1,237 bases of DNA from NCBI RefSeq assembly GCF_003334315.1, contig NZ_QOWR01000119.1. One strand, 5' to 3'. The stretch comes from Escherichia coli (GTDB lineage: Bacteria; Pseudomonadota; Gammaproteobacteria; Enterobacterales; Enterobacteriaceae). Each line of letters starts with the position of its first letter. The first letter of the stretch is position 1. The notes beneath the pieces are model-generated. The model saw only the letters and a list, made by a program, of their open reading frames with translations, did not search any database and was not told the DNA's origin. This document shows positions 1-1,237 of the stretch, one piece after another. The translations under genes were made by a program, and so were the position numbers.

Positions 1-614
1 GCCTGCCGGGGCAGCAGTATGATGAGGAGTCCGGCCTGTATTACAACCGCCACCGCTATTATGACCCGCTGCAGGGGCGATATATCACTCAGGATCCGAT
101 TGGACTGAAGGGGGGATGGAACCTGTATGGATATCAATTGAATCCGATATCAGACATCGACCCCCTGGGTTTATCTATGTGGGAGGATGCAAAATCGGGG
201 GCATGTACTAATGGTCTTTGCGGCACACTATCCGCTATGATAGGTCCAGATAAATTTGATTCTATAGATAGCACCGCATATGACGCCTTAAATAAAATAA
301 ATAGCCAATCTATTTGCGAAGATAAAGAGTTCGCTGGTTTAATATGTAAGGATAATAGTGGCAGATATTTCTCAACAGCACCTAACCGAGGAGAAAGAAA
401 AGGATCATATCCATTCAATAGCCCTTGCCCTAATGGTACTGAGAAAGTATCAGCTTATCATACTCATGGTGCAGATAGTCATGGAGAATATTGGGACGAA
501 ATATTTTCAGGTAAAGATGAGAAAATAGTTAAAAGTAAAGATAACAATATCAAGTCATTTTATTTAGGTACGCCCAGTGGTAATTTTAAAGCAATAGATA
601 ACCACGGGAAGTAA
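1..614 (+). CDS. Rhs-family polymorphic toxin, 3' portion (5'-partial): end of the RHS repeat-associated core plus a variable C-terminal toxin domain
   Basis: Frame 3 is open from position 3 to the TAA at 612..614 with no upstream stop, so the gene starts outside the window. The translation begins [57 protein letters not shown], which is the hallmark C-terminal end of the Rhs core (YD repeat followed by the PxxxxDPxGL boundary motif). The start at 138 in the ORF track is an in-frame TTG (Leu), not a real start. Which Rhs paralog this is cannot be determined from the window. Confidence 0.93.
159..173 (+). other. DPLGL core/toxin demarcation motif of Rhs (predicted autoproteolytic release site region)
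   Basis: Codons gac-ccc-ctg-ggt-tta encode DPLGL at 159..173. A first DPIGL lies at 93..107. In Rhs proteins the conserved PxxxxDPxGL motif marks the junction between the conserved core and the variable C-terminal toxin. Confidence 0.85.
174..611 (+). other. Variable C-terminal (Rhs-CT) toxin domain, 146 aa, family unassigned
   Basis: This is the segment after DPLGL: [18 protein letters not shown]…[33 protein letters not shown]…NHGK. It is AT-rich (about one-third GC by eye, versus about 60% GC in the first 60 nt of the window). It contains 5 Cys and a His cluster (HTHGADSH). No HExxH, HNH or obvious deaminase motif was seen. Confidence 0.75.
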
Positions 615-627
615 ATAACAAACAGAA

Positions 628-632
628 AAGGA
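628..632 (+). promoter_or_regulatory. Shine-Dalgarno-like sequence (AAGGA) for the downstream ORF
   Basis: AAGGA at 628..632 lies 7 nt upstream of the ATG at 640, which is the first start codon after the in-frame stop at 616..618. Confidence 0.5.
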
Positions 633-639
633 TTACCTA

Positions 640-1023
640 ATGTCTGCAGAGTTCATGGTAATATGTAAAAAAATATTGTTTAGGAACTGTGTCATTGTAT
701 CTTTGTTTGTTTTTACATACAACACATGGGCGCAGTGTAATAATAATATTAAAATAATGCGCAAGTATGAAAGTGAAGGTAAATATACCGTTAGAAATTT
801 GGTTAAAAATAAAGCTATAGCATTGGAATTAGCTGAGATATATGTTAAGAATCGTTATGGACAGGATGCCGCAGAAGAAGAAAAACCATACGAAATCACT
901 GAGTTAACAACAAGTTGGGTTGTTGAAGGTACCATTCACTCAGACCAAATTGCTGGTGGGGTTTTTATTATAGAAATAGGCAAAAATGATGGGAGAATTC
1001 TGAATTTTGGCCACGGAAAATAA
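640..1023 (+). CDS. Putative cognate Rhs immunity protein (127 aa) with a signal-peptide-like or membrane-anchor N-terminus
   Basis: Complete ORF from ATG 640 to TAA 1021..1023, same strand and 25 bp downstream of the rhs stop, with the same AT-rich composition as the toxin domain. This is the canonical position of an rhsI immunity gene. The N-terminus (MSAEFMVICKKILFRNCVIVSLFVFTYNTWAQC) has basic residues followed by a hydrophobic stretch of about 11 residues and a possible signal peptidase I site (TWA|Q). The C-terminal half (…AEEEKPYEITELTTSWVVEGT…AGGVFIIEIGKNDGRILNF…) looks to me like the small NTF2-like/YbbC-type immunity proteins found beside E. coli rhs genes, but that is an unverified recollection. 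Confidence 0.7.
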   Translation: MSAEFMVICKKILFRNCVIVSLFVFTYNTWAQCNNNIKIMRKYESEGKYTVRNLVKNKAIALELAEIYVKNRYGQDAAEEEKPYEITELTTSWVVEGTIHSDQIAGGVFIIEIGKNDGRILNFGHGK

Positions 1024-1033
1024 GTATGTAAGG

Positions 1034-1056
1034 GGTGATGATGCCAACTTACTGAT
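1034..1056 (+). repeat. IS1 left terminal inverted repeat (IRL)
   Basis: GGTGATGATGCCAACTTACTGAT differs at one position from the canonical IRL I recall (GGTGATGCTGCCAACTTACTGAT). The exact start is ambiguous by 1-2 nt because of the preceding G run (1032..1035). Confidence 0.85.
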
Positions 1057-1088
1057 TTAGTGTATGATGGTGTTTTTGAGGTGCTCCA

Positions 1089-1237
1089 GTGGCTTCTGTT
1101 TCTATCAGCTGTCCCTCCTGTTCAGCTACTGACGGGGTGGTGCGTAACGGCAAAAGCACCGCCGGACATCAGCGCTATCTCTGCTCTCACTGCCGTAAAA
1201 CATGGCAACTGCAGTTCACTTACACCGCTTCTCAACC
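1089..1237 (+). CDS. insA: IS1 InsA (transposition repressor / N-terminal part of the InsAB' transposase), 3'-partial
   Basis: GTG at 1089 followed by codons for [48 protein letters not shown], the InsA zinc-finger region (CxxC…CxxC). The frame runs off the window end. Confidence 0.93.

Follow-up and report, generated by a model that had tools for sequence, protein, structure and literature searches.

The near-identical ends of an Escherichia coli rhsB toxin gene and its immunity gene most probably reflect a coincidence created by a premature stop codon

Introduction

Exchange of toxin/immunity cassettes between Rhs loci is known (Zhang et al. 2012, PMC3482391). Toxins of the Tox-JAB-2 family have a conserved E, an H[ST]H motif, an S and a D, and their immunity partners belong to the Imm-NTF2-2 family (Zhang et al. 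2012, PMC3482391). Tox-JAB-2 has been proposed to be a nuclease (PMC3482391). In E. coli K-12, toxins and immunity proteins of these families are encoded by rhsB-yhhH (b3482-b3483) and by the paralogous pair rhsD-ybbC. Our literature search on rhsB plus yhhH returned one genome announcement alone.

Here we analyse a stretch of 1,237 nt from an E. coli assembly (GCF_003334315.1, contig NZ_QOWR01000119.1), hereafter the window, in which two consecutive genes end in almost the same 13 nt. The window shares the DPLGL demarcation and the DUF4329 toxin region with K-12 rhsB-yhhH, and its yhhH matches that of K-12 at every base. It differs from K-12 in a G-to-T substitution at position 612 (G612T), which leaves RhsB 18 residues shorter, and in what lies 3ʹ of yhhH: the yrhC pseudogene and yhhI in K-12, but IS1, after ~10 nt, in the window. 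The toxin has the E, H[ST]H, S and D motif of Tox-JAB-2 and an Imm-NTF2-2 partner; in contrast, the published description of these families says nothing on a shared 3ʹ motif (PMC3482391). A preliminary description of the window, which noticed the matching ends, allowed for either a coincidence or a short repeat left at the junction by cassette recombination.

Results

The window contains the 3ʹ end of an E. coli-type rhsB gene, followed by yhhH and the end of an IS1 element (Table 1). Over its whole length, the window is 99.6-99.9% identical to E. coli chromosomes, and the features beneath these matches are rhsB, yhhH and IS1. At least 80% of the window is covered in 2,607 of the 5,426 complete E. 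coli genomes. A PxxxxDPxGL-type demarcation motif is present at 141-173, and the variable C-terminal toxin region (DUF4329) follows it. GC content is 49-58% in the core (before ~250) and falls to 26-41% in the toxin/immunity part (~200 to 1050). Hence, there is a break in composition, and the 5ʹ boundary of the cassette is visible as the DPLGL motif and the GC step near 173-250. RefSeq annotation and Pfam matches bear out the preliminary description in its view that an rhs C-terminal toxin is followed by its immunity ORF. The position of yhhH directly downstream of the toxin region, together with its family assignment, points to a cognate immunity gene with a putative protective role, and the AAGGA that precedes its start codon may function as a Shine-Dalgarno sequence.

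Table 1. Features of the window (positions in nt from the first base of the window)
Feature	Position	Strand	Basis
End of the Rhs core, finishing in the demarcation motif (DPLGL at 159-173)	1-173	+	Translation; rhsB annotation in matching genomes
RhsB C-terminal toxin domain (DUF4329 / Tox-JAB-2), cut after residue 146 of 164	174-611	+	Pfam, alignment, AlphaFold model
First copy of the 13-mer: last base of Asn, His-Gly-Lys, premature TAA	602-614	+	
G-to-T nonsense substitution, GAA (Glu) to TAA	612	+	Alignment to K-12 and AP025205
Native rhsB 3ʹ remnant ITNRKGLPNVCRVHGNM, now untranslated; native stop TAA at 666-668	615-668	+	RefSeq annotation, translation
AAGGA, Shine-Dalgarno-like, 7 nt 5ʹ of the yhhH ATG	628-632	+	Read from sequence
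yhhH immunity gene, 127 aa, Imm-NTF2-2	640-1023	+	Same as K-12 gene; Pfam PF15631
Second copy of the 13-mer: genuine yhhH terminus, Gly-His-Gly-Lys-stop	1011-1023	+	Homologue ends; Pfam model reaches the last residue
IS1 left end, inverted repeat GGTGATGATGCC..., insA from GTG at 1089	1034-1237	+	Identity to IS1B-family element in AP025205

The two copies of the 13-mer, ccacgggaagtaa (CCACGGGAAGTAA) and ccacggaaaataa (CCACGGAAAATAA), close the ORFs at 138-614 and 640-1023. They are identical at 11 of 13 positions and in the same codon phase, and both encode His-Gly-Lys-stop, as the preliminary description had it; the mismatches, at 608 and 611, are synonymous third-codon positions. The similarity is confined to this short stretch. 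Identity in the flanks is 13/60 upstream, which is below the random expectation, and 4/10 downstream, such that the similarity spans no more than 16 nt. The toxin and the immunity protein are not similar by BLASTP, and on these two grounds we rejected a shared origin of the two termini.

How unusual is the match? A second copy of the 13-mer with at most two mismatches is expected 0.01 times in shuffled sequence, a figure that comes from a post-hoc test on a word chosen in advance of it. Across the whole window, 11 or more of 13 bases are identical in 22 pairs of 13-mers, and the AT-rich cassette has 17 such pairs, compared with 12 ± 5.6 in shuffles. Hence, the quality of the match is ordinary, and only its placement at two stop codons is unusual. 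An imperfect tandem duplication of 24 nt at 499-546 (AAATATTTTCAGGTAAAGATGAGA / AAATAGTTAAAAGTAAAGATAACA, 75% identical) lies in the toxin coding region, where it encodes FSGKDEK and IVKSKDN; this is probably a chance product of AT-rich, Lys-rich sequence.

Alignment to other copies of the locus revealed the origin of the first stop codon. Of positions 1-1032, all but two (2 and 612) are the same in the window and in K-12 (1030/1032 identical), and position 612 is the sole difference from strain AP025205. Position 2 is a C/G polymorphism relative to K-12, with C common to the window and AP025205. We compared 40-mers centred on position 612, so that every 28-base megablast seed must contain that base. 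The G version is present in 2,603 of the 5,426 complete E. coli genomes, and the T version in none of them. All 14 other loci that we fetched with the same cassette have GAA; these include ten further yhhH-bearing contigs, none of which has the yhhH/IS1 junction. A 35-mer carrying the T was not found in JGI metagenomes. The “terminus” of the toxin gene at 612-614 is, thus, a premature stop codon private to this copy and not the native end of the gene. With G at position 612, as in the ancestral sequence, the match to the immunity terminus is 10/13 and lies inside the toxin gene rather than at its end. The HGK site is then the only in-frame site in the toxin gene that matches the immunity terminus at 8 of 10 positions, and three others match at 7 of 10.

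An alternative explanation for T612 is an error of sequencing or assembly, in which case the real toxin gene would be intact and would have no shared terminus. The difference is a single base, it is unique when set against 2,603 cassette-bearing complete genomes, and it is absent from the metagenome scan, all of which would fit an error. However, the GAA-to-TAA site is not in a homopolymer run. Furthermore, neither the 5,426 complete E. coli genomes nor the JGI metagenomes contain the yhhH/IS1 junction; the lineage of the window is therefore one that these collections do not sample, and private mutations are expected in it. We infer that T612 is a real mutation, and we consider an error unlikely; the conclusion on the 13-mer is the same in either case. 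The IS1 sequence itself (1034-1237) shows no difference from the IS1B-family element annotated in AP025205, and its GGTGATG... terminal inverted repeat is followed by insA. The window holds the left end of the element; the right end and the target duplication fall beyond it. The insertion, ~10 nt 3ʹ of the yhhH stop codon, replaces the yrhC/HEAT-repeat remnant found there in K-12 and other strains.

In K-12 and AP025205, RefSeq annotation extends rhsB by 18 codons (...HGKEITNRKGLPNVCRVHGNM-stop) to a TAA 54 nt beyond the stop codon in the window, and the native protein reads ...NHGK-EITNRKGLPNVCRVHGNM-stop past the turn described below. The native end of rhsB overlaps yhhH by 29 nt, with ...GLPNVCRVHGNM-stop read over MSAEFMVIC... 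in the other frame. This 29-nt overlap of toxin and immunity genes is kept in rhsB-like cassettes with immunity proteins that have only 68-71% identity to YhhH, which suggests a dual-frame constraint or translational coupling in the rhsB-like subfamily. In the paralogous rhsD-ybbC pair, a gap of 39 nt stands in place of the overlap.

The toxin region matches Pfam DUF4329 (E = 7.9e-40), and the HGK tripeptide (residues 176-178) is inside the match, which covers residues 65-183. Residues E52, H96-T97-H98, S112 and D115, in toxin-region numbering, are invariant in 22 aligned DUF4329 sequences. In a confident AlphaFold model of the native toxin region (164 residues; pLDDT 93.6, pTM 0.88), N143-H-G-K146, with HGK at 144-146, forms a β-hairpin turn between strands 137-142 and 147-152. 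The best Foldseek matches in the PDB are JAB/MPN proteins (BRCC36, EMC8, proteasome lid and SRU_2040), and these are weak (E 0.01-0.07, TM 0.3-0.4); sequence searches of solved structures found no relative of the toxin or of the immunity protein. The G612T substitution removes the last predicted β-strand, and with it a tail containing a cysteine that is conserved in the closer subfamily (PNVCRV, PSQCRV, PDRCVI). Most likely, rhsB in the window is an inactivated allele alongside an intact immunity gene, and the structural model suggests that toxin activity would be lost.

The toxin region (174-665) has six cysteines (in GAC, LCG, SIC, LIC, SPC and NVC). The N-termini of YhhH (640-740) and YbbC are hydrophobic and signal-like, and that of YbbC has an LFAC lipobox-like motif. 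Together, the cysteines and signal-like segments hint at a periplasmic site of action, which would fit poorly with the nuclease role proposed for Tox-JAB-2.

We compared gene ends in K-12 rhsB/yhhH, K-12 rhsD/ybbC, a Salmonella cassette and a cassette from sequencing-run assemblies; with the window, these make five distinct cassettes. The diverged cassettes were obtained by exact-protein look-ups. Identity between K-12 RhsD and RhsB is ~52% in the toxin region, and that between YbbC and YhhH is 48%, but RhsD ends ...ALNNKGEYIFIRNSVPGLSSVCIPYHD-stop (from the HGK site onward, NNKGEYIFIRNSVPGLSSVCIPYHD-stop), its last residues IPYHD lying upstream of ybbC without overlap. YbbC ends ...LNFLHSK-stop, the RhsD equivalent of HGK is in NKGE, and there is no shared terminus. 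In the Salmonella cassette, whose immunity protein is 71% identical to YhhH, the toxin ends ...DNKGKVINDKKGLPNVCRIHGNM-stop and the immunity protein ...FGHGR-stop. In the third cassette, from sequencing-run assemblies (immunity protein 68% identical to YhhH), the corresponding ends are ...DNKGQSITNRKGLPNVCRIHSSM-stop and ...FGHSK-stop. All of the diverged toxins run past the HGK site, where they read NKGE, NKGK or NKGQ. The preliminary description had proposed a search for the motif at the module boundaries of related loci; in none of these related pairs do the last 13 nt of the toxin gene resemble those of the immunity gene. In the wider DUF4329 family (757 representatives at E ≤ 0.001), none of the 26 representatives that we aligned ends at the HGK turn. 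The position is occupied in these 26 by a loosely conserved Gly in a turn, and there is always more sequence after it.

A profile scan of genome contigs with the immunity-protein alignment yielded three loci, all of them E. coli rhsB/yhhH or rhsD/ybbC DNA in MAG bins. These contigs (L004, L005 and L006) are in MAGs named Flavobacterium psychrophilum, Lachnospiraceae bacterium and Alistipes sp. L004 and L005 carry the rhsB-yhhH of the window at all but 1-2 bases, and L006 codes for the K-12 versions of RhsD (C-terminal region) and YbbC, with no difference in protein sequence. The E. coli cassettes in these MAGs are probably mis-binned E. coli DNA.

The end of the immunity gene has a different character. 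YhhH matches Pfam PF15631 (Imm-NTF2-2) with E = 3.4e-26 over residues 60-127, which correspond to positions 1-68 of the 68 in the model. Its homologues end F[GL]H[GS][KR]-stop, with H invariant and [GS][KR] conserved. Hence, the His-Gly-Lys-stop of yhhH is explained by its domain, since Imm-NTF2-2 closes with conserved H-[GS]-[KR] residues.

Discussion

Why do the two genes end alike? We conclude, with a probability of about 0.9, that the shared 13-nt terminus is a coincidence that arose through a premature stop codon, and is not a cassette junction. The immunity gene truly ends in His-Gly-Lys-stop, as the conserved end of its domain, and the toxin gene has an internal Asn-His-Gly-Lys turn, after which the G-to-T change at 612 turns the next codon into TAA in this copy alone. 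The native toxin continues for 18 more residues and finishes within yhhH. The decisive point is that the private G612T substitution makes one of the two stop codons. Thus, of the two readings in the preliminary description, coincidence stands, since the stop codon is private and the native end is 54 nt further on, and the recombination-junction repeat does not, since the toxin and immunity genes of every related cassette compared end differently.

Some observations count against coincidence. An end-to-end match would be uncommon if specified in advance: among pairs of in-frame 10-mers from the toxin and immunity genes, only 0.21% match at 8 or more of 10 positions, and an identical tripeptide occurs in 0.028%. 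Furthermore, G612T is one of 75 possible single-step substitutions that create a stop codon in the toxin region, and hence a stop directly after HGK is one of 75 such paths, although the match was noticed post hoc.

It is conceivable that the stop codon at 612 is non-random. It could be a selected, toxin-inactivating allele in a lineage in which IS1 is expanding (that such a lineage is Shigella-like would be a guess), with the immunity gene left as an orphan protector, or it could have been templated through the 10/13 microhomology. We regard a non-random origin as improbable.

A specific form of templating would be a very short conversion through microhomology, in which the immunity terminus (ccacgg.aa.TAA) served as the template for T612. 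The ancestral sites already matched at 10 of 13 positions, and CCACGG and AA flanked the base that changed. However, the neighbouring mismatches are unconverted (G versus A at 608, G versus A at 611 and A versus G at 615). The tract would be limited to 612-614 at most, with one base changed, which makes it indistinguishable from an ordinary G-to-T substitution. To our knowledge, there is no reason to expect conversion between imperfect 13-nt repeats that are 409 nt apart. Conversion is accordingly a very improbable source of T612.

The proposal that the 13-mer is a short repeated junction marking module boundaries, left by or used in cassette recombination, draws on the in-phase 11/13 match at two consecutive stop codons and on the known exchange of cassettes between Rhs loci (PMC3482391). 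Nevertheless, one of the two stop codons is a private point mutation, and the motif is not at the true module ends, since the native rhsB stop is at 666-668 and not at 612-614. The motif occurs at both boundaries in none of the related cassettes, the similarity stops within 16 nt, and the visible 5ʹ boundary of the cassette is elsewhere than the 13-mer. We give a recombination junction almost no credence. Least credible of all is a C-terminal His-Gly-Lys that serves both proteins as a functional tag (e.g. for processing or recognition) and arose by convergence: it would fit the invariant terminal H and conserved [GS][KR] of the immunity family, but no aligned toxin ends there except the copy in the window, the four closest toxin homologues that we compared have K in place of the H, and the site is a turn within the protein.

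Our conclusion that the matching ends are most probably coincidental strikes a candidate cassette-junction motif from consideration, and otherwise matters little. Annotation of the rhsB copy in the window should mark it as an allele truncated by a nonsense change, and the rhsB toxin gene has its true 3ʹ boundary 29 nt into the immunity gene.
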